From a virus (Duplodnaviria; Caudoviricetes), in the IMG/VR virus record IMGVR_UViG_3300043078_000170: a stretch of DNA of 64,000 nucleotides; one strand, 5' to 3'. Of this stretch, positions 3,103 to 61,319 are shown piece after piece. The notes beneath the pieces were generated by a model, which did not search any database, was not told the origin of the DNA, and saw nothing but the letters and a program-made list of their open reading frames with translations. Positions within the stretch are counted from its first letter, which is position 1. Each line of letters opens with the position of its first letter. A program made the position numbers and the translations under genes.

Positions 3103-4926
3103 ATGCACAAACATCCGATTGAATTAGTAGAAGAAAGAGAGAATGAATTTAAAGATAATCATTCTTTCTTAGGTCCAACATGTATGATTCCAGGTTTAGC
3201 TTCAACTGATGCCAACAGAGCTCAAATGGACTCATCGCACTTAGAACAAAGACTACAGGTATTAGAACCTCAAGCACCTTTAATTTATACTGGATTTGAG
3301 AATGAATGGGGTAAGTATTCTTCAGGATATTGCCAACTAAAAGGTAAATGGAAGGTTCTTTGTAAGATTGAAAAGAATGACTATAACTATGATTTAATCA
3401 TTAAGAAGATTAAGAATAGTGAAGAAGAAACTAAGAATTTAAAGAATGGTATTAAACCAGAATTTAATCCAGGTGAATATCATGTAATTCAAAGAAATGA
3501 ATGTACTCATCTTACAGAAAAATATGGTTATAAGCATGATAATAAAATCATTGATTCATTAGAAAAAGGTGATATTATTGAAAATAATACAGTATTATTT
3601 AAAGATAATAACCGTGATGAAGAAATGAATTTAACTCATGGAAGAAATCTTAATGTTGTTTATTTGACTTATGGTGGTCTAACAAATGAAGATGCTATTG
3701 TAATTAGTGAAAGTACTTCTAAGAAAATGGGTCACTATGAAGTTAAAATTGTAGATGTATCATTAAACACTAATGATATATTTGTAAATATGTATGGTAA
3801 TAAAAAATTCTATAAGTCTTTCCCAGATATTGGTGAAGATTGTAAAGATGGATTATTATGTGCAACAAGAAGAATTAATTATTCAACTGCTCCAATTACT
3901 TTAGCTGATACTATTAATCTTATTCCTGAAGATGTAAAGTATAGAGGACATGGTAAAGTAGTTGATCTTCAGGTTATTTCTAATATTGAAAATCCTGAAG
4001 AAGTCTTAGATACAACATATAATAAGCAGATTAAGATTTACTATGATAAACAGCAAAACTATTATAAGAATTTTATTGCTTATGTTGAACCAATTGTTAC
4101 TAATTCAGAAAATAAAGTTAGTAAGGATTTAGTAGATCTTTATAACTATTATTGTAGATTAGTTGATCCGAATAATAAATTCTTAGTAAATGATAATCTA
4201 TTTGATCATCTAAGAATTAAGTTTACTATTCTTGAAGAATGCTCATTAGTTATTGGATCTAAATTGGCAGGACGTTACGGAGATAAAGGTGTTGTTTCAG
4301 AAATTAGACCAGATGATGAAATGCCTAAAGTAACTGATTTTGCTGGTCTTGGCAATCCTGATGAAAATTCTAATGTTAATTTCCAGATTGATATGATATT
4401 AAATCCATTAGGTGTTTCTAATAGACTTAATCCTTCTCAGAATATTGAAACAGAAATTAATTATAATAGTAAATATATTAGATATCAGATGGAACAGAAT
4501 TGGAATGAATGGACTCTTGAAGAAGAAAAGAAGTTTTTAATTGACTATCTTAATGTAGTAGATAAAGAAGAATGTGAAAACATTGAAAAGTTCATGGATA
4601 ATTTATCTGAAGAAGAACTTGAGGAACTACTCTTAGAGATAATTAAAAATGGTATTCCAGTTCATCAAGCACCTTTAAATGGAGCTAAAAATATTGTTGA
4701 TCTAGCAAGAATTTATAATTATACTGGCGTAGATCGTACTAAACTTAAAGATATTACTAATACAGTAATATTTGGTGAAAAGTTTATGATGACGCTTAAG
4801 CATATTCCTGCTTCTAAATTTAGTGCAAGAAGTGTTGATCAATTAAGTATTAAGAATATTCCTGTTAAAAGTAATTTGTATAAAGAATATAAGTCTGATT
4901 ATTCTACTAATGCTATCAAGATCGGT
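3103..4926 (+). CDS. RNA polymerase beta subunit C-terminal half, exon 1 (spliced product about 693 aa)
   Basis: DANRAQM, NEDAIVIS, GSKLAGRYGDKGVV, DMILNPLGVSNRLN, MTLKH and KFSARS motifs; ends IKIG just before the conserved EME. Confidence 0.9.
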
Positions 4927-5257
4927 AAATTTTGCTGATGTAAAACTCCTTTAATTGCTGGAAACTCCTTAGTATAAGGACAATCAGCAGCTAATTATTC
5001 TAAGAATTCTTAGAATAAAAGTTCAACGACTATCGAAACCATAAGCTATTATTGAATAGCTGAAGAAGGAAGTAGAGTAGAGCCAAGTGGTTTAGGTTTA
5101 GAGCAATAATCTTATAATTCCTAATTAAATCGAAATGGGGAGCATTTGTTATTATCCAATAACAATGAAGATATAGTCTCAACTCTAGATATAAATAAAA
5201 CTAGAGAAGTTCATAAGAGAACTGCATAAGATTAACGACCTTATGTGAAGATAATTG
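4927..5257 (+). mobile_element. Group I intron without an ORF in the RNAP beta-C gene
   Basis: P1 AUCGGU/GCUGAU with a U-G pair at the splice site; AATTGCTGGAAA, AATCAGCAG, GTTCAACGACTA and AAGATATAGTCT core elements; terminal G5257; splicing restores G-EME. Confidence 0.9.
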
Positions 5258-24480: not shown

Positions 24481-25077
24481 ATCCGCACTCTTTTCATCTT
24501 TAGGAGATGATAAAGCTTTAATAGTATTATTATTTTCTGCTAATCTAAGCATATTAATATTATCAGTATCATTTTTTAAATTCATATGACTTTTAAGATA
24601 TGGAGGTAACACTTCAATAACATCCATAATACGTTTTAAATTTTCTTGTGAGTCTTGTAATTGTTTATTACTAAATATTATAGTATAATTTTTAGCTTGA
24701 TATAAATAAATCCATGAATACCATACAACTGAACTCCAAGTTTTAAAGTGCTGCCTGGGCAGGCATAATATAATATCTTTATTTTTTATTTGCATATAAT
24801 GCATTGCCATATTGCCTAAATGTAATTCATATTTTACTGCGCCACCAGTAGAATTAATTTTTACAACTTCTCTAATATAATACCAATAATTAATCATTAC
24901 TTCTTTTTGTATTCTAGCTTGCATTTCTAAAGATAAATTAGGATCGTAAGGATCAACACCTTGTAATTTAGAATCATATAGTGCTAACATAAATTTCCAA
25001 TTCTTAATTTTTTTGTCTTTTAATGTTTTAGCCATTTTAATGAAACTAGTATTTTTAGTATTATAATCATAGATCAT
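24481..25077 (-). CDS. terL: Terminase large subunit, exon 1 (spliced product about 659 aa)
   Basis: NYWYYIREVV adenine-binding region; Walker A-like LPRQHFKT. Confidence 0.88.
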
Positions 25078-25131
25078 ATTATATTTACTCCTTTCTTATA
25101 AAATATAATAATAGGTTGAAATAATTATATG

Positions 25132-25309
25132 AAAAAAAAAACTTTTTATTATAATTTTTATTTAGAAAAGAGGTAAAATATTTATGTATTATGAAGATGC
25201 TTATTTAGAAGGTTATTATGATGCCATTCTTGAAAGTGATTATGATGATTATGAAGAAGATGATTATGAAGATGCTTATTTAGAAGGTTATTATGATGCT
25301 TTATTAGAA
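25132..25309 (+). repeat. Left arm of a ~180 bp inverted repeat (promoter, RBS and 42 codons)
   Basis: Reverse complement of 26095-26275 apart from one extra codon and two substitutions. Confidence 0.9.
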
Positions 25310-25753
25310 CAAGGAAATGCTGTAAACAGAGCTAAAAGAAGAAAATTTGAAATAGAAAGAACTAATAATACTCTCCCAATATATGATTCCAATAAAATGG
25401 ATAAAACTACAAAAGCTGGGGAATTTTGGAATACTACTAATTATTATGGTGATAAAGAGCCTGTTTGGAAAAATGCTAAAACTGGAAAAGCTCAAACACT
25501 TAAATTTGATATACCAACTAAAGCTTATTATACAGCAGGAAAAATTGCTAGACATAGACAATTATCAAGAGCTGAAAATGAATTTAGCAAATCAAAAACA
25601 TTACAAAGAAAATTAAACGATGCTAAAAGACAAGGAAAGATTCATAAAGGTTTAAGTGATCCAAATAATTTAGCTAAATATAAAAAGGAAGCAGCTAGAC
25701 AACAAAAACTTAGAAAAAAACCTGGAAAAGGCGGAATTATGGATTTAGTATAA
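25184..25753 (+). CDS. Basic protein with acidic leader containing two EGYYDA(I/L)LE tags
   Basis: MYYEDAYLEGYYDAILE...YEDAYLEGYYDALLE followed by a K/R-rich body. Confidence 0.7.
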   Translation: MYYEDAYLEGYYDAILESDYDDYEEDDYEDAYLEGYYDALLEQGNAVNRAKRRKFEIERTNNTLPIYDSNKMDKTTKAGEFWNTTNYYGDKEPVWKNAKTGKAQTLKFDIPTKAYYTAGKIARHRQLSRAENEFSKSKTLQRKLNDAKRQGKIHKGLSDPNNLAKYKKEAARQQKLRKKPGKGGIMDLV

Positions 25754-25860
25754 AAAAATAATTCTATAAGATTTTATAAAGTCTTATTATTTAACTTTAT
25801 ATTAAAAATAATCCTTAAGAGTTTTAAACTCTTAAGGATTTTATTATATAAAATTTTAAA

Positions 25861-26223
25861 TTACCAACCTAATATTCTTCTACCTTCAGCTCCAGGGTCT
25901 TTCTTTATTCTATCAATTTCCATTTGTCTTCTAGCATTTTGTTTAGCAATATTTCTATTAGAACGATATTCTCTTGAAGCCATTTCCTTAGCACTTTTAT
26001 CGCCTACAAGATCTTCCCATTCTTTTTTTGTGTTGTTTCTTTCTAACATATCTTTTCTTAACTGTTTTCTATATCCTTTAACAGGTTCGCTAATTTCTAA
26101 TAAGGCATTATAATAACCTTCTAAATAAGCATCTTCGTAATAATCATCTTCTTCATAATCATCATAATCACTTTCAAGAATGGCATCATAATAACCTTCT
26201 AAATAAGCATCTTCATAATACAT
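25861..26223 (-). CDS. Basic protein with the same double-tag leader and an unrelated body
   Basis: Leader near-identical to that of the 25184 gene. Confidence 0.7.
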   Translation of the reverse strand: MYYEDAYLEGYYDAILESDYDDYEEDDYYEDAYLEGYYNALLEISEPVKGYRKQLRKDMLERNNTKKEWEDLVGDKSAKEMASREYRSNRNIAKQNARRQMEIDRIKKDPGAEGRRILGW

Positions 26224-26275
26224 AAATATTTTACCTCTTTTCTAAATAAAAATTATAATAAAAAGTTTTTTTTTT
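26095..26275 (-). repeat. Right arm of the ~180 bp inverted repeat
   Basis: Reverse complement of 25132-25309. Confidence 0.9.
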
Positions 26276-26339
26276 GAATCGTATTTAATATATTACTCAT
26301 ATATATATTATAATTATGAATAATATATATTATTCATAT

Positions 26340-26487
26340 TAGTGCAGATATTAAATCCAATAAGCACTTTTAATAAATATTGGAGTTTGTATGTTCCCTT
26401 GAAGAAACTCTTGGTTGAAAAGATATATACCATATAAGAGATAACAGAGTAAAGGTAAATAGTACAAATATATCTTTGGAGGTCATT
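26340..26487 (+). ncRNA. Candidate structured RNA leader, copy 1
   Basis: Homologous to 56602-56754 with compensatory changes in several helices. Confidence 0.6.
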
Positions 26488-26907
26488 ATGACTAAGAATA
26501 TTAATGTAACAGTAACAGCAGCAATCGCAACCGTTATTAGAGAATACAATATCTCCATTAAGATCAAAAGCAGAAATGACATAATTAAGGAGACTGGAAA
26601 AATTTCAATTTGTGCTTGCACAACTTTGGAAAAAGGAAAGTGTCCAATTATTTATTTGGTGAAGGAAGATCTTAGCAAAATCAATAATGACGAATTGCAA
26701 TTTATCATCGGACATGAGCTGGGACATATTATCACAGATAGTGCAGATGAAGAACTTGCTGATCGGTACGGTGAAGCCTGCTCAAAAGGAAGAAACGTTA
26801 ATAAGAAGGTTATATTCCAAAAAATTAAAAAAATCGAAGAAGGCTTGTTAAAAGCAAATCCAAATTTAAGAAAAAGCAATCGTTATGGACATCGGGAAAA
26901 TGCATAA
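26488..26907 (+). CDS. Early HExxH zinc metallopeptidase-like protein (M48/IrrE-like)
   Basis: FIIGHELGHI...EELADRYG; GGAGG RBS supports ATG 26488. Confidence 0.65.
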   Translation: MTKNINVTVTAAIATVIREYNISIKIKSRNDIIKETGKISICACTTLEKGKCPIIYLVKEDLSKINNDELQFIIGHELGHIITDSADEELADRYGEACSKGRNVNKKVIFQKIKKIEEGLLKANPNLRKSNRYGHRENA

Positions 26908-27027
26908 ATGATTAATAAAAATAGAGATGACACGACATAATTATATATACATATATGGTCGTCTCTTTTTTTTTGTATTTTTAATAAAAACTATACTTTA
27001 TATTTTTAAATAGAGAGGTGAAACTAA

Positions 27028-28191
27028 GTGTCAACATTTTTTAATGATGAAGTATATCCAATGATTAAAACAAATGAAACACCTGCAATTACTAAACAAT
27101 TTGAAACTTATGTACATAAATATATGGATAAAAATTCTGAAGTGTTATATCACAATATTCCTAGTAAACGATTATTTTTTACTCCTTCAGATATTAAATA
27201 TCCTTTTGATCTTTTTAAAATATCAGTAGATGAAATAGATAATGTAGTAGCTAAAATTAAAAAAACTAAAGAATGCTATGGTGTTATTAATCAGGTAAAC
27301 TTTCCATTAAACTTTTTAATGGTAAATTTAGTTAGATATTATCATTTAGCTAACAATAAAGCAGGATTACAAGTATCTTTAATGTATTTAACACTATATC
27401 AATATGCTGCATTACATGCAAAATATTTTCAAAAGTTCTTACCTAATGAAGATTGTATGCAATTTACATTTAATAGAGTTTCAGATAAATATTATTTTAG
27501 AAAATATCAATCAGTATTTAAAGCATTATTTGCAACAGTTATTAACGCTCATGAAACACAAAAGAAATCTTTAGAATCTAAAAATGATATGGATATTTTA
27601 AGTTATTTATTAGCGATTAGAACTAGATTAAATAACCAAATGAAATCTTTTGTTAATGAATATATGATAGATTTTAATAATAAAAAATATCTTAAATTAC
27701 AACAAGATTCACAAGATGAAGAAAATTATCGTGAAACATCTAATATGTCTGCTGATTTAGTAATGGTAGTAAATAAAGCTTATAATAAATTTACTACTAC
27801 TAAAGTAGATCCAGTTATTTTAAGAACTGCTTGCGGTATTTGTAAAGCAGAACAAAGTGTAATGAAATTAGCTTTAGAGAATATTAAAGATAATGAATTA
27901 GATTCAATTAGATTATTATTATTATCAATGGTTCAATTATATATTTATAATAGTAATAATAATTCAAATGAAATTGGATCACAGAAATTTGTTACTTATA
28001 TGATATCTGCTTATAGTAAGTCTAATAGTAAAAATGATATAAGCTTAAATATTAAAAAAGTATTAGATAAATTTTTAACTAAATATTGCAATAGATATTC
28101 TAATACTGAAAGAGAAGCTACTAAAGTTATATATCGTAAAGCATTATATATTTATATGGTATTATTAATTAATAAATCATATAATTCATAA
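27028..28191 (+). CDS. Hypothetical protein (late)
   Basis: 387 aa ORF, GAGGTG RBS, AACT-N6-TA upstream. Confidence 0.7.
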   Translation: MSTFFNDEVYPMIKTNETPAITKQFETYVHKYMDKNSEVLYHNIPSKRLFFTPSDIKYPFDLFKISVDEIDNVVAKIKKTKECYGVINQVNFPLNFLMVNLVRYYHLANNKAGLQVSLMYLTLYQYAALHAKYFQKFLPNEDCMQFTFNRVSDKYYFRKYQSVFKALFATVINAHETQKKSLESKNDMDILSYLLAIRTRLNNQMKSFVNEYMIDFNNKKYLKLQQDSQDEENYRETSNMSADLVMVVNKAYNKFTTTKVDPVILRTACGICKAEQSVMKLALENIKDNELDSIRLLLLSMVQLYIYNSNNNSNEIGSQKFVTYMISAYSKSNSKNDISLNIKKVLDKFLTKYCNRYSNTEREATKVIYRKALYIYMVLLINKSYNS

Positions 28192-36981: not shown

Positions 36982-37146
36982 TTTCGGTACACCTCACTTT
37001 TCTTAAAAAATATAACTTTTTGTTTTAAATGTTAAAATGTATTTAATTATAATACTAAATATATATTATAATTGTGATAAGAGAGTAATGCTCCCTATAA
37101 AGACTCCTTATCTTATTTATAATTTATGGGTGCGGAAAGGTCTATT

Positions 37147-37416
37147 ATGGCTACTATTTATTTAACTTCAAAGGCAAAACTCAACATTCAGCTTACTGAG
37201 GGCGGTAGTCCTCTTTATGCCCGTGTCGAGGTGGAAGGACTTCCTCTCCAGCCTAGAAGCAACCTTGGCGGTATCTATCCTAATTTGGAAGATATCGTAG
37301 AAGGACTTGGATTCTATGGATTCACCTTCACAGACTTTGGTACTGATGAAACCGCTGAATCGGTAGGAATTCTTTCCAATGAGAAGCTTGAAGAGATTAT
37401 GAATATTGTCAAGTAA
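37147..37416 (+). CDS. Hypothetical early protein
   Basis: TATATTAT at 37062, GAAAGG RBS, higher GC than flanks, own terminator. Confidence 0.6.
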   Translation: MATIYLTSKAKLNIQLTEGGSPLYARVEVEGLPLQPRSNLGGIYPNLEDIVEGLGFYGFTFTDFGTDETAESVGILSNEKLEEIMNIVK

Positions 37417-41723: not shown

Positions 41724-43394
41724 TTATAAGAATCCACCGAAATATTTTAAGAATGTTTCGGTTGCTGCTGATGCTTGCTCATAAACAGATTGCTTTGTTT
41801 GATTTATATATTCATTTAATGTAGCAGGCATTGAAGTTCCAGTAGTCGCTGCAGTTTCTAATAATTTTTGAAAATTTGCTGTTCTTACTGCTGTTTTATA
41901 TTCAGAACTATTAGAATATTCTGATCTAGATAAAATCTTTTCAGATTTCTGTTCAACAGTAGTTTCATAAGTTTCTAACTCTTTTTTATATTCATCTTCA
42001 GTTAATTCTCCATTATCATATAATTGCTTTAATGCTTCTTTTTTAGCATTAACTGTATCATCATCTATTTCTAAAGCTTTTTTAGTTTTTTCTACATAAT
42101 CATTATAAACACTTGTGTTACTAGATGTTATAACACCCATTTTTAATTCAGACATAGTTTCAACTGCATTTGATAAAATATTTTGTCTTAGTTGATCCCA
42201 ACTTGATGTTGAATAATTTGAATTAGTTGCTGCTGTTTTAGAATCACCTGTTGATCCTGATTCATTTGCATTATTACTAAAACACATTACTAAAGTACGT
42301 TTAGTAGAATTTTCTGCACTATTAAATGCTGTTTTACTATTAGTAGTATCATAACTTCCTTCACTAGATGTTTTTATTTCTACATGGTCATAATTCTTTT
42401 CAAACATAAAATCTCTTCCATCATTACTAAATGTATAACTATTAGATGAAGAAGAATTAGATGAAGTGCTACTTGAAGAAATAACTGTTGTATCTTCATT
42501 AGGATCATATACATTAAAAGTAGAATAACCATAATTACTTTGTAAAGAGCTTAATGAAGCTGTTGCAGTATCTGAAGAACCATCACTAGATTCTTTTTTG
42601 GTATAATTAAATATATTTGCAGTAGAATTAGATACTGCATTAAAATCATATATAATTTGAGGATTTAATTCTTCTTTATATTGATATGCAAATGTAATTG
42701 TTGTTTCAATAGCATTTCTTGAAGTAATATCACTCAATACTAAACTTGATAAAGGAACATTAGTTGGATATATTCCAGTATATTTAGTAAAATATAAAAC
42801 AGTTCTCATATCAAAGTCTAATAAAAAGAAATAAAGAGAAGATGTAAAATCTAATATACGATTATCTCTAGTTGTTTGTGTTGGTTCGTGTAAACCATAA
42901 CTAGTTACTTCTATATAAGTCATCCATGCATAAAATATTTTAGTAATATCTAAATTTTTAGTTTCTGCAAAGTTAACTGTTAAAGAACTTTCAGCAGTAA
43001 AATTATCAATAGTTGATGCAGGTAATATTTGTTTCCAACCATAATAGTTTTCATAATCTTCAATAGTTTTCATACCAAAGTCTTTTAATGTAATACCTTT
43101 AAATCTATTAGTACATAATTTAATAAAAGGAGATGTAGAGCCTCCTCCTGAATATTGTAGCTGTTTTAATATATATGAATCGGTACTATTTAAATAAGAA
43201 AATAATTGATTAGAGTCTAATAATGTTTCACAACAATCACCATTTTCATAAATATTCATAGAAGGTGTTGTTAAAAAAACTATTGGTAAACCACCCATAA
43301 ATGGTTCAGTGTTTTCTCTTAGTCTATATGGATTAAAATTATTATATATATTAACTTCACCATATTTATTACTTACTATACTTGCAGCATTCAC
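41724..43394 (-). CDS. Tube-fold baseplate/tail initiator protein (gp48/gp54-like) with C-terminal extension
   Basis: FAET..LDITKIF.AW..YI and YTGIYPTNVP...ITFAY tube-like pattern. Confidence 0.5.
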   Translation of the reverse strand: MNAASIVSNKYGEVNIYNNFNPYRLRENTEPFMGGLPIVFLTTPSMNIYENGDCCETLLDSNQLFSYLNSTDSYILKQLQYSGGGSTSPFIKLCTNRFKGITLKDFGMKTIEDYENYYGWKQILPASTIDNFTAESSLTVNFAETKNLDITKIFYAWMTYIEVTSYGLHEPTQTTRDNRILDFTSSLYFFLLDFDMRTVLYFTKYTGIYPTNVPLSSLVLSDITSRNAIETTITFAYQYKEELNPQIIYDFNAVSNSTANIFNYTKKESSDGSSDTATASLSSLQSNYGYSTFNVYDPNEDTTVISSSSTSSNSSSSNSYTFSNDGRDFMFEKNYDHVEIKTSSEGSYDTTNSKTAFNSAENSTKRTLVMCFSNNANESGSTGDSKTAATNSNYSTSSWDQLRQNILSNAVETMSELKMGVITSSNTSVYNDYVEKTKKALEIDDDTVNAKKEALKQLYDNGELTEDEYKKELETYETTVEQKSEKILSRSEYSNSSEYKTAVRTANFQKLLETAATTGTSMPATLNEYINQTKQSVYEQASAATETFLKYFGGFL

Positions 43395-43588
43395 TTTAAT
43401 TCACTTCCTTTATATAAAATTTATATTAGTTTGTTGTATATAGTAAAATTTAATAAATATATATTATTTACATGGAAAAGGAGTTAGACTGCATCCACGT
43501 ATCTCTATAAAAAACTTAATATTGTAGGCTAAACAACGGTCGTGTCTACATGCTCTTTCCTAATATTAAATTTTAGGAGGAGATTATT

Positions 43589-43774
43589 ATGGTTTTTAAA
43601 AATAATAATAAAAAATTTAAATCTACAAATAATAATAACAAGGTTATTGAAGATAAATTTCCATTCCCAGAATGGTGTAATTTATTTCCGAGCAAAAACA
43701 ATTTTAACAAACATCAAAGTAAAAATATCGGAGATGCAATAGCTTGTTTAATATCATTAATTTTGGACCATTAA
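43589..43774 (+). CDS. Small early protein embedded in a structured transcript
   Basis: AGGAGG RBS, TATATTAT at 43460, terminator at 43822-43858. Confidence 0.5.
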   Translation: MVFKNNNKKFKSTNNNNKVIEDKFPFPEWCNLFPSKNNFNKHQSKNIGDAIACLISLILDH

Positions 43775-43898
43775 AAAATTAGTGATAAAAGCCTAATTAT
43801 CTTTTCTAAAGAGTTACGTGGAGGGCAATATTTACTTTTGAATATTGCCCTTTTTTTTAACAACTTTTTATATTTTTATTAGAAAGGAATGATAATTT

Positions 43899-45245
43899 AT
43901 GGCAAGTTTTAACGACTTTATTCAAAGAGCTGCAGGACGTGCAAATAGAAGAGTAAGTGCTGGTAAGACTATTGATATTTATAATGGAAATTCTATTAAA
44001 AAAATGACCAAAGATATGATATTACAATTTCCTATTTTAGTATCACAGAATATTTCTCAAGATACAGTTGCAACTTTAGCTGCAGGATTTGAAGTTGAAA
44101 ATACAATCATGTTAAGATTATTGTTACAGAATGATTTTGGTACTCTAACAAATGGTTCTGGCGATTTAATTTCATCTTTAAGAAAAATTCATACAAATAT
44201 AGAAGGAAATCCAACATTTTTGGAAAGTTTAAAAGAGTCTAATAAATCTCTTTCAATTCCACTTGAGGAAAAGTTTTGTATGTGGTCTTTAAACGAAAGT
44301 ACTTTACCTAAATACTTAAATGAAGATAGTCATTCAGAAGTAGATAACGATGCTAGAAATAATAGAAATATTGATTTAGGTCCTTTAAGTGTTAAAGATA
44401 ATTTACATAGACAAAATAAAACAACTACTGATGTGAAATTTATAGATAATGCTCCATTTAATCCAGATATGTTTAAAAAGGTAAATGATTTACAACCAAC
44501 TTTCGTTAAAATAAAGATTTCAGTTTCAAATTCAACAACAACCGAAAGAGAAGGTGGTTTTGGAGTTAAACTTGGTAAATTTGGTATGAGTAAAGAAGGT
44601 AGTCCTTTAAGTGTTGGTAGCGATTTAAATGTAGGATATGGTAATACAAAAAATATATCAAGAACTTCTTTAGATGAAAAAGAAATTATTTTTGGTGTAA
44701 AGTGTATGGCACATCCATTAAAATCTGAAGATATTATATTTAATATTGGTAATGAATTTAAAAATTCTACTTTATTTAAGTTTGTTAAATGGACCACTGG
44801 TGAGTATGGATTCTTTAAGGGACTTGGAGAAATAGTATTTGACTTTACTAATATGAAAAATACTGGTATTCAAGCTGCTAAAACTTCTAACTATTGGTGG
44901 TATAAACTTAGAAAAATGAAGAATGAAAATAAACAAATTTTCCATTCTTCAACAAGTAATAAAAATGCTCCTATTAAGACATCTACATTAGTTATAACTA
45001 AAGATGAAGTTGATTATATTGCGACAACTTATAGAATTGATTTATCAATGCCTAAATTTGCACAAAAATTAATGAATTCTCTTTATTTATTAAATTTTGC
45101 ATATATTGATGAATCTACAGAAACAGTTTATCTTTATGATGAACCATCTGCTAGTTATACTGTTAAAAAGTTTAATGATTTTAAGAAACAAAAGAAAGCA
45201 ACACCAATTAATATTGATGATATTAAATCATTATTCGGTAGATAA
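43899..45245 (+). CDS. Hypothetical late (probably virion) protein
   Basis: 448 aa ORF, late promoter at 43859-43870. Confidence 0.65.
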   Translation: MASFNDFIQRAAGRANRRVSAGKTIDIYNGNSIKKMTKDMILQFPILVSQNISQDTVATLAAGFEVENTIMLRLLLQNDFGTLTNGSGDLISSLRKIHTNIEGNPTFLESLKESNKSLSIPLEEKFCMWSLNESTLPKYLNEDSHSEVDNDARNNRNIDLGPLSVKDNLHRQNKTTTDVKFIDNAPFNPDMFKKVNDLQPTFVKIKISVSNSTTTEREGGFGVKLGKFGMSKEGSPLSVGSDLNVGYGNTKNISRTSLDEKEIIFGVKCMAHPLKSEDIIFNIGNEFKNSTLFKFVKWTTGEYGFFKGLGEIVFDFTNMKNTGIQAAKTSNYWWYKLRKMKNENKQIFHSSTSNKNAPIKTSTLVITKDEVDYIATTYRIDLSMPKFAQKLMNSLYLLNFAYIDESTETVYLYDEPSASYTVKKFNDFKKQKKATPINIDDIKSLFGR

Positions 45246-51646: not shown

Positions 51647-53308
51647 ATGGAGAATAAACTTATATCAAGTAATTCTTCAAATATTGTTGAAGAAAATGAT
51701 TATAGAAATATTTCTGAAAAGACTTTAGAAACTATTGCTAATAGCTTAAGAAATTCTTTAGGCTATTATGGTTCTTCAACTATTATTGAAGATAAAGTTA
51801 ATGGACATGTTGCGACTAAAGATGGTTATACTATTTTATCATCTTTAAAATTTGAAAGTCCTTTAGCTACAACTATTTATGAAATTATTAAGAAGATTTC
51901 ATTTAATTTAGTACAGACCGTAGGTGATGGAAGTACTTCTTCAGTAGTTATAGCACAATCATTATTTACAGTATTAAATAATGCTATGAAAGATGATGGA
52001 GCACTTAGTAAGTATTCACCTAAAGAAGTCTTTGATACATTAAAATCTATTGAAGAAATTATTTCAAAAGGTGTTAAAGAAATGGCTACACCTATTGATG
52101 AAGATAATTTTGATATTATTAGAAAAATTGCTGAAGTATCTAATAATAATGATGCTAAAGTAGGTTCTAATATTTATGATATTTATAAGGTTATTGGAAA
52201 TGATGGTTTTATTTATTTAGAGAATTCTAATGATTCTGAAGATCATTTTAAATATTTAAATGGTCTTGAATTTGCTACAGGAATGATTGCAGAGGATTTT
52301 TCAAATAATAAGAATAAACCAGAATGTAATTTTAAAGAACCTTTTATTTTTATGTGCAATGATAGATTAGATTCTACTGACTTAAATTATATGGTAGATT
52401 CTGTAGGTAATTTAGTTGCTAGACATACTAAACCTATGGTTATTATTGCTAAAAGCTTTTCAGCAGAATTTGTTTCTTGCTGGATCATAAATAAAAAGCA
52501 AAATCCTGATTTTAATATTTGTTTAGTTGATTTTAATTTTGCTAATAAAAATCAAGAAGAAATATTTAAGGATATTGCTTTATATACTAAGAGTACTATC
52601 TACGATAAGACTTTTAATTCAGCAGATGATTTTAAAAAGAATTTTTATACTATGCTAGGTTCTTGTGATGAAATTTCTATTAGTAATAAAACTACTAAGC
52701 TAGTTGGTCGTAAATGTTCTGATAAAGAACTTGAAGATCGTGTCAAGTATATAGATGAAGAGATTCAAAAGTTTAAAGATCTTAAGGATGAATCATTCGA
52801 TAGTAGAATTTTCCAATTAGAAACTAGAAAAGCTAATTTAAATTCTACAATTGTTAAATATTATGTAGGTGGGGATACTGAATTAGAAAAGAATAATCGT
52901 AAGTATCTAATTGAAGATAGTATTTTTGCTTGTAAAGCAGCTTTAGAAACTGGTTATGTTTGTGGTGGTAACTTAGCTATTCCAAAGTTTATTAATACTT
53001 ATATGAGTAAAACTGATATGAGTAGTTTAGAAAATATTTTATTTAAATTAGTTAAAGAATCTTTCATTCAATGTTATAAATGCGTTTTAAATAATGCTTC
53101 TATACCTTCAAATGATATTAATAATATTATTGAACAGTGTGTTAATAACGATGTTATTTATAATCTTAAGACAAAGCGATATGAAACTGAAAAGGAAACT
53201 TACATTGTAAATTCAGCTAAGACTGAAATTGAAATACTAAAAGCAGTAATTAGTATTATTGGTATTCTAGTAACATCTAATCAATTTATTTGTAAGAGCT
53301 TAGTTTAA
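51647..53308 (+). CDS. groEL: Phage GroEL-like chaperonin
   Basis: ATKDGYTIL, VGDGSTS, VGGDTELE and GYVCGG motifs. Confidence 0.88.
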   Translation: MENKLISSNSSNIVEENDYRNISEKTLETIANSLRNSLGYYGSSTIIEDKVNGHVATKDGYTILSSLKFESPLATTIYEIIKKISFNLVQTVGDGSTSSVVIAQSLFTVLNNAMKDDGALSKYSPKEVFDTLKSIEEIISKGVKEMATPIDEDNFDIIRKIAEVSNNNDAKVGSNIYDIYKVIGNDGFIYLENSNDSEDHFKYLNGLEFATGMIAEDFSNNKNKPECNFKEPFIFMCNDRLDSTDLNYMVDSVGNLVARHTKPMVIIAKSFSAEFVSCWIINKKQNPDFNICLVDFNFANKNQEEIFKDIALYTKSTIYDKTFNSADDFKKNFYTMLGSCDEISISNKTTKLVGRKCSDKELEDRVKYIDEEIQKFKDLKDESFDSRIFQLETRKANLNSTIVKYYVGGDTELEKNNRKYLIEDSIFACKAALETGYVCGGNLAIPKFINTYMSKTDMSSLENILFKLVKESFIQCYKCVLNNASIPSNDINNIIEQCVNNDVIYNLKTKRYETEKETYIVNSAKTEIEILKAVISIIGILVTSNQFICKSLV

Positions 53309-56482: not shown

Positions 56483-56601
56483 TGCTTAAATATTCCTATA
56501 GAGAAAATAATCTCTATAGGAATATTATTAAACCGTATTAAATCATATATTTGTATATATATTATAATTGTGAATAAAGTAAATAATTACTTATATTCAT
56601 A

Positions 56602-56754
56602 TATTAGAGTGGATATTTAATTCTAGTGGCTCTTAAATAAATACTAGAGTTTATATGTTCCCTTGAAGAAACTCATTGCCTGAAAAGATAGGGCGACTGA
56701 TATGAGATAACAGAGTAGGGGTAAAATAATATAAATAATATCTTGGAGGCTATT
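56602..56754 (+). ncRNA. Candidate structured RNA leader, copy 2
   Basis: Homologous to 26340-26487 with covariation. Confidence 0.6.
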
Positions 56755-57003
56755 ATGGCTAACTTCAATTCTACAAAGAAAAACTACAATAAGGGTTACA
56801 ACAATGGATATTGCAATGGTAAGAATGTCGGTACTATTGTTGGATTGGCTGTTGGAGCATCTATTGGAGCATGCTTTGGAGCAATGATTTCAGGTCTTTC
56901 TCATGATTTCAGTGACATCAGAGAATATGACCGTATTAATCATGACGCTGAAAAGCTTATTGAGAGACAGGAGAGATTGAATAATATTTATAGAAATAAG
57001 TAA
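56755..57003 (+). CDS. Early glycine-zipper membrane protein
   Basis: GTIVGLAVGASIGACFGAMISG; GGAGG RBS; terminator at ~57024-57088. Confidence 0.6.
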   Translation: MANFNSTKKNYNKGYNNGYCNGKNVGTIVGLAVGASIGACFGAMISGLSHDFSDIREYDRINHDAEKLIERQERLNNIYRNK

Positions 57004-61231: not shown

Positions 61232-61319
61232 TGGTGGATGAGGTAGGAATCGAACCTACGGTGTTTCAAGTGTAACAGATTTACAGTCTGCCGTCATCGC
61301 CAACTAGACATACTCATCC
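61232..61319 (-). tRNA. tRNA-Tyr(GTA)
   Basis: GGATGAG/CTCATCC acceptor stem, CAGA-CTGTAAA-TCTG anticodon arm, long variable arm, GGTTCGATTCC T-arm, encoded CCA; late promoter at 61325-61336. Confidence 0.95.

Follow-up and report, generated by a model that had tools for sequence, protein, structure and literature searches.

A repeated, covarying pseudoknot leader in front of unrelated small genes of an AR9-like jumbo phage

Two paralogous leaders and their genes

The window, by which we mean the whole stretch of 64,000 nucleotides analyzed here, contains two paralogues of one structured 5' leader, at 26339-26490 and 56604-56757. Each stands between a promoter and a small ORF, and the two cassettes comprise the following promoters and genes.

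26280-26317, plus strand: early promoter of copy 1, with the CGTATTTAAT element at 26280-26289, the core ATATATATTAT at 26301-26311 and a 6-nt spacer
26488-26907, plus strand: gene of copy 1, a mini zinc metallopeptidase of 139 amino acids with an HExxH motif, M48/U49-like
56532-56571, plus strand: early promoter of copy 2, with the ACCGTATTAAA element at 56532-56542, the core ATATATATTAT at 56555-56565 and a 6-nt spacer
56755-57003, plus strand: gene of copy 2, 82 amino acids, with a hydrophobic segment that resembles a glycine zipper; no family match

An earlier note on this DNA, made from the sequence alone, had aligned 26280-26490 with 56534-56757 and had described a duplicated RNA leader with invariant cores and covarying helices upstream of two unrelated genes. 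The repetition is genuine and far exceeds what chance would give. Its alignment covers about 230 nt at a column identity of 85%, beginning about 50 nt before a TATAAT-like box and extending a few bases beyond the start codon. Among the cores, one of 19 nt is found exactly twice in the window (0.01 expected), and the third core is also found exactly twice. The unpaired blocks are invariant between the copies and the stems diverge, a pattern which would argue for specific recognition. The downstream ORFs of the two copies proved unrelated, as had been claimed.

A perfect hairpin, CCTATAGAGA ... TCTCTATAGG, at 56493-56520 immediately precedes the promoter of copy 2. It is a probable terminator of the preceding operon and would insulate the second cassette.

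Phage of origin and related records

The GC content is about 25% across the window, and the majority of its ORFs are without Pfam family. Pfam detects domain 6 of the RNA polymerase subunit Rpb2 in the ORF at 3103-4938, and the best named relatives of this ORF are the non-virion RNA polymerase beta subunits of the Bacillus phages AR9 and PBS1 (42% identity). Other genes of the window encode a chaperonin and a tail-tube-like protein. Because of this gene content, the window is taken to be a fragment of an AR9/PBS1-like jumbo phage that is represented in metagenomes only. The phage encodes its own tRNA-Tyr (GTA anticodon; 61232-61319, minus strand).

The nearest record, an IMG/VR contig of 134 kb with an estimated completeness of 52% (G001), is about 98% identical to the window over the window's length. 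G001, G003 and G004 represent the same phage (99.99-100% identity). G002 and G005 are one further sequence, which does not overlap G001 and comes from samples shared with it; most simply, it is another part of the G001 genome. Other relatives are G006, G007 and the complete 306-kb genome G008 (IMGVR_UViG_3300032030_000005), with RNA polymerases that are 72-79% identical.

Copy number and distribution

Exact-motif scans of IMG/VR located the element in five contigs only, from four related samples. A covariance model (R1) was built from seven sequences and found two more divergent paralogues, with 84 and 54 bits; the refined model (R2) scores all copies at 100-172 bits. Altogether there are 12 covariance model matches in related contigs, which add four paralogues to the two in the window. 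The copies fall into five sequence types (A and A', B, C, D, E; type D at G001:4427), and there are probably six copies per genome.

Outside this phage, the searches were negative. Apart from contigs of the same phage, three IMG/VR pattern scans gave chance matches only. There was no true match in a metagenome pattern scan with the tail WWARTA (which excludes type A as found in the window, type D and type E), none among the 105 chance matches of a scan of a genome collection, and no blastn match of the element in 50,697 phage records. Model R2 found nothing significant (E 0.05) in the whole genomes of AR9, Listeria phage LPJP1, Staphylococcus phages SA1 and Madawaska and Bacillus phage BpSp. 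The same is true for G006, G007 and G008, where weak matches reflect a shared RBS context only.

The earlier note had not recognized the leader as a known riboswitch or ribozyme. In agreement with this, a tRNA is the only Rfam match at gathering score in the whole window, and permissive scans of both copies against Rfam 15 (E up to 10) gave chance-level matches only, with E values of at least 1.3. A literature search found no paper describing the leader. The leader is thus uncatalogued, and it belongs to the broad and known kind of structured cis-acting mRNA leaders.

Cassette genes are accessory

Each copy of the leader heads a different small ORF, of 82-155 amino acids. The six downstream proteins have no significant similarity to each other, and a family match exists for one of the six only, the copy-1 metallopeptidase. 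This protein has no orthologue in G006 or G008. More generally, the conserved neighbors of both cassettes are present in G006 and G008 and the cassette genes are absent, which identifies the cassettes as lineage-specific accessory content of variable regions. In the G006 interval that matches cassette 1, other small genes follow an early promoter with a short leader.

The DNA upstream of copy 1 is rearranged between strains (window 24842-26274 versus G001 43206-43966), with a 470-bp segment inverted.

Early promoter and predicted transcription start

The early promoter of AR9, which is used by the virion RNA polymerase, has been mapped experimentally as AAATATATATTAT, followed by six nucleotides and a G at +1 (PMC5312081). 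Many AR9 early promoters also have an upstream ccgtattaaa element (PMC5312081, Table S2). Copy 1 matches the AR9 early consensus at 12 of 13 positions and copy 2 at 11 of 13, both with the 6-nt spacer, the G and the upstream element. Hence, an AR9-type early promoter precedes both copies, in line with the earlier description of the downstream genes as early. The exact core promoter, six nucleotides and G are found upstream of all nine distinct copies. Matches to sigma-70-like promoters were no commoner than in shuffled sequences.

Based on the core, the 6-nt spacer and the G, transcription starts were placed at G26318 and G56572, which would result in 5' UTRs of 170 and 183 nt by homology to the mapped AR9 promoters. 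By the same homology, leader-bearing mRNAs are predicted to be made by the injected virion RNA polymerase.

The folded element is not part of the promoter, because the same promoter also heads other, mostly short leaders elsewhere in the window, and because only about 6 of about 28 early-promoter matches (in G001 and G002) are followed by the element.

Most transcripts predicted from AR9-type early promoters open with a hairpin at or adjacent to +1. In the window, such hairpins follow the plus-strand promoters at 313, 3063, 30903, 32092, 53379 and 63260, and there are many more in G001, G002 and G008. A hairpin at or next to +1 is a general 5'-end feature of this phage lineage.

Fold of the leader

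The predicted elements of the two copies are listed below from 5' to 3'.

26318-26335, plus strand: start of copy 1 at a G 6 nt past the core, and 5'-terminal hairpin P0, present in every predicted fold
26339-26385, plus strand: pseudoknot domain of copy 1, with Ha 26341-26345/26364-26368 and Hb 26356-26362/26378-26384
26346-26351, plus strand: 5' strand of P1 of copy 1, in loop L1
26369-26377, plus strand: A-rich loop L3 of copy 1
26386-26468, plus strand: long arm of copy 1, with P3 26386-26392/26462-26468 and P4 26397-26400/26452-26455
26401-26403 and 26448-26451, plus strand: loop-E-like part of the copy-1 arm, GAA opposite AGUA
26408-26440, plus strand: distal arm of copy 1, with P5 26408-26412/26436-26440, P6 26413-26415/26429-26431 and apical loop 26416-26428
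26470-26493, plus strand: 3' end of copy 1, with the P1 3' strand 26470-26475, SD GGAGG 26478-26482 and AUG 26488-26490
26481-26485/26489-26493, plus strand: P7 of copy 1, a small SD/AUG hairpin predicted with high probability
56572-56598, plus strand: start of copy 2 (G56572) and P0 hairpin
56604-56649, plus strand: pseudoknot domain of copy 2, with Ha 56606-56610/56629-56633, Hb 56622-56628/56642-56648 and the P1 5' strand 56611-56617
56650-56735, plus strand: long arm of copy 2, proximal helices P3 56650-56656/56729-56735 and P4 56661-56664/56718-56721
56672-56706, plus strand: distal arm of copy 2, with P5 56672-56676/56702-56706 and P6 56677-56680/56692-56695
56737-56757, plus strand: 3' end of copy 2, with the P1 3' strand 56737-56743, SD 56745-56749 and AUG 56755-56757

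The leader comprises about 150 folded nucleotides. P0 is followed by the 5' strands of Ha and P1, by Hb (with the 3' strand of Ha and an A-rich stretch as its loop), by the arm of P3, P4, P5 and P6, and by the 3' strand of P1, with the SD 2-3 nt further on. All helices listed in the earlier note are present, namely Ha (AGUGC/GCACU versus AGAGU/GCUCU), Hb, P3, P5 and the helix that closes just before GGAGG; P4, the apical P6 and the 5'-terminal P0 are additional. The proposed pseudoknot also holds: Hb crosses Ha in both copies and both helices covary, as expected for an H-type pseudoknot. As P1 joins the long first loop of this pseudoknot to the 3' tail, a three-way junction of P1, Hb and P3 results.

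Loops differ in how well they are conserved among types. L3 is A-rich with an AAUAAA core in four of the five types and is deleted in type E. In the triplex class of H-type pseudoknots, adenines of the third loop form minor-groove triples with stem 1, a candidate role for those of L3. The apical loop on P6 and the internal loop between P3 and P4 are invariant in most types. AGUA opposite GAA is the sequence signature of the sarcin-ricin or loop-E module. As a sequence pattern, it adjoins P4 in every type except D, namely in A, A', B, C and E. Type D keeps the helices and has lost both the loop-E and the apical-loop consensus, so that either these loops are dispensable or the type D copy is decaying.

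P7 pairs the last two bases of the SD with codon 2 or part of the AUG, and there is a compensatory change between types A and B. We regard this predicted hairpin as tentative.

Two alternative assignments were rejected. Pairing between the apical loop and the 3' tail is possible in types A to C and unsupported in type D, and the covariation agrees better with P1. A K-turn at the loop between P4 and P5 lacks the helix-adjacent GA.

Minimum-energy folds of both copies have an identical nested architecture. The folding energies of the single sequences are not better than those of shuffled sequences (z scores +0.67 and +0.18), and hence the support for the fold is purely comparative.

Covariation of the helices

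Nine distinct sequences were aligned with MAFFT, blind to structure. In the seven-helix model, 90% of the pairs are standard pairs, compared to 38-57% in controls with the 3' partners slid by 1-3 columns. Changes on both sides occur in 16 of 36 pairs of this alignment, versus 1-9 in the slid controls. Shuffled alignments have a mean covariation score of 0.153, compared with 0.316 for the real one, a value that none of 500 shuffles reached; as the shuffle test ignores relatedness, we rely mainly on the slid controls. In the model-fitted alignment, 94.6% are paired and 15 of 35 pairs have double changes. From the blind alignment, RNAalifold recovered Ha, P3, P4 and P5 unaided, with 10 of 23 pairs compensated.

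All seven helices covary. Ha is located outside the covariance model, and it differs in every type yet always pairs. Both sides have changed in four of its five pairs and in three of the seven pairs of Hb. For P1, the support comes from types D and E, in which both strands have changed. The covariation noted earlier between the two copies of the window is thus strengthened by homologues, since seven more sequences keep the pairing.

The copies all belong to a single phage species (two strains that are about 98% identical, and a non-overlapping contig from the same samples). As paralogues of one species they represent few independent events, and gene conversion between them could inflate the apparent conservation. 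Judged from the comparison of all types, we consider the leader a real and reproducibly structured cis RNA.

Simpler leaders in a relative

In G008, whose RNA polymerase is 72% identical, a recurring pseudoknot leader of about 70-80 nt is found behind the same promoter, in front of unrelated small early genes.

68869, 228021, 286248 and 298094, plus strand: starts of G008 pseudoknot leaders
115730, minus strand: start of a further G008 pseudoknot leader

These leaders consist of a 5' segment, an H-type pseudoknot with A-rich third loop and the SD, and their stems differ yet stay complementary. They resemble the element of the window in promoter type, in the structured 5' end, in a first stem of about 5 bp, in an AAUAAA-like third loop and in the location just upstream of the SD. 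They differ from it because they lack P1 and the P3-P6 arm, and they are missed by its covariance model. No publication on leaders of the G008 type was found.

The element of the window looks like an elaborated variant of a G008-like module, with the first loop enlarged to provide P1 and an arm of 85 nt inserted before the SD. As the relative uses the simple pseudoknot, the arm is an addition with its own constraint. The earlier suggestion of a new cis-acting RNA is therefore valid in that there is no Rfam match, and has to be qualified for the pseudoknot module, which resembles the simpler leaders of G008.

Comparison with known systems

The pseudoknot in the leader of T4 gene 32 is a translational operator, a site of protein recognition and nucleation upstream of the RBS, through which translation is repressed. 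It is likewise a phage 5'-UTR pseudoknot upstream of an RBS. The T4 operator is single-copy and autoregulatory and consists of a small pseudoknot and unstructured AU-rich RNA, whereas the leader of the window has six copies, unrelated genes and a large extra arm.

The xrRNAs of flaviviruses and plant viruses, located in viral UTRs, combine a three-way junction with a pseudoknot that involves a strand 5' of the closing helix, and are defined by a ring topology. The likeness of the leader to xrRNAs fits a role in blocking 5'-to-3' exonucleases. However, sequence or Rfam similarity is lacking, and the pseudoknot partner of the leader is in a hairpin loop and not in the junction.

PeSLs of T4-type phages consist of a sigma-70-type promoter and a terminator stem-loop of about 50 nt (PMC2839356). 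Like the cassettes of the window, they are repeated and head non-essential ORFans in hyperplastic regions, and recombination between copies can shuffle their cargo (PMC2839356). In contrast to the window's leaders, they have neither a complex folded leader nor a covarying pseudoknot, and the promoter in the window is of the AR9 virion polymerase type. We do not count the cassettes as PeSLs, given a phage polymerase promoter in place of a sigma-70 promoter; repetition in variable regions is common to both. Antiterminator RNAs of the HK022 put type are promoter-proximal and allow the polymerase to pass terminators further downstream. This type was also rejected, as there is no terminator-like site in or just downstream of the copy-1 leader (26100-27100) and the fold is unlike the two put stem-loops.

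AR9 early transcripts are described as having long 5' UTRs and a predicted shared UTR motif of unexplained function (PMC5312081, Fig. S3). Phage group and promoter class are the same as for the leader; model R2 finds nothing in the AR9 genome.

Possible roles of the leader

There is no intrinsic terminator or terminator-like site in the leaders, which points to control of translation or stability. No conserved helix competes with the fold for the SD, which is largely open apart from the weak P7. Together, these two observations argue against a classic attenuator, and there is no positive sign of a switch.

The reading that we prefer, tentatively, is that of a factor-bound module for post-transcriptional control and stability of early mRNAs. 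The early mRNA would present, in this order, the +1 hairpin, the H-type pseudoknot, P1, the long arm and then the SD. The knot directly before the RBS could shield the body of the message from 5'-to-3' decay, and it could also govern access of the ribosome to the SD. A putative trans factor (a phage or host protein, or the ribosome) would dock onto the invariant unpaired nucleotides of the arm and co-regulate the subset of early accessory genes that have the leader. Placement, +1 hairpins and the knot at the RBS fit message protection and initiation control. The arm contains about 45 constrained unpaired nucleotides that relatives dispense with, and it is found on a subset of early genes only, which suggests a specific partner.

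Rather unlikely, in our view, is a constitutive barrier or enhancer that needs neither factor nor ligand. Here, the fold would stall an RNase J1-type exonuclease (putative in the host) and present the SD. This would make sense of a 5' strand tucked into a hairpin loop beside a three-way junction, directly upstream of the SD, and the +1 hairpins on most early transcripts of the phage and of G008 suggest pressure to protect 5' ends. In AR9, moreover, early 5' ends respond poorly to a 5'-phosphate-dependent exonuclease (PMC5312081). The simple pseudoknot at the same spot in G008 can be read both ways: it fits a barrier, but it is apparently enough there, and the roughly 45 invariant unpaired nucleotides of the added arm exceed the obvious needs of a roadblock. 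That only a minority of early genes carry the leader also counts against this reading.

A translational riboswitch is unlikely. In this case the junction, the loop-E arm and the pseudoknot would together serve as an aptamer whose ligand, a small molecule or an ion (such as a nucleotide-derived signal that reports the state of the host), gates the SD/AUG hairpin. The leader has the hallmarks of a conserved aptamer, with a pseudoknot, stems that covary, and junctions and loops that do not change, and occurs in several copies before different genes. What is missing is an expression platform. P1 ends 2-3 nt from the SD and the hairpin takes up part of the AUG together with the final two bases of the SD, but there is no conserved alternative pairing, UUCC-GGAG provides 4 bp only, and a terminator is lacking. 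In addition, the controlled genes share no pathway, and the range is limited to one phage species. A more specific version, in which a phage aptamer of new fold senses a host-state or immune-signal molecule and switches on an early accessory (possibly counter-defence) regulon, is more doubtful still.

A self-cleaving ribozyme that trims the 5' end of the message is very improbable: the core is compact, pseudoknotted and highly conserved, and phages are rich in small ribozymes, but there is no Rfam ribozyme similarity at E values up to 10 and no recognizable catalytic core, and type D alters much of the core. We give as little credence to the absence of any function at the RNA level, with a PeSL-like mobile promoter-leader cassette being homogenized by recombination or gene conversion. 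The same leader type is indeed found with different genes (A before the metallopeptidase, A' before another ORF), the homology block extends from the promoter to about 7-10 nt inside the ORF, and the variable regions in question are filled with other genes in relatives. Yet gene conversion leaves unexplained why changes are concentrated in helices and compensated on both strands (seven helices, with fixed loops), and mobility of a cassette is compatible with an RNA function. The remaining probability belongs to functions outside these readings.

Post-transcriptional control is poorly understood in jumbo phages that use RNA polymerases of their own. The leader provides a handle on the survival and translation of early messages in a hostile cell, on protein- or ligand-controlled leaders as phage regulons, and on the movement of cargo genes by promoter-leader cassettes. 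Its immediate reach is limited by a known range of a single uncultured phage species.

Other readings of the locus and further early RNAs

The invariant UAUGUUCCC block (26391-26402 and 56655-56666) reads as a mini-ORF, Met-Phe-Pro. A mini-uORF was rejected as the main function: AUG-UUC-CCN is invariant, but the ORF has 3, 7, 8, 15 or 17 codons, and there is no conservation of the SD-like GGAG that precedes it. An anti-SD role of the invariant UUCC was also rejected, because its 4 bp are far weaker than P1, P3 and P4 together. Coding on the minus strand was dismissed as well, since copy 2 lacks an equivalent of the 83-aa ORF that overlaps copy 1.

In G008, the stretches behind early promoters with starts at 52717, 53055 and 150316 (all minus strand) are structured and ORF-poor over 150-250 nt and end in terminators consisting of a hairpin and U-run. 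They may represent early RNAs that stand alone.

A different leader, about 70 nt long, follows a third exact early promoter of the window (37044-37150, plus strand, start at G37076). It has its 3' end, AUGGGUG(G)CGGAAAG before the AUG, in common with a leader at G001:3560 (G001:C1:3540-3640), and the two may be members of another small leader family, one whose RBS is unusual.
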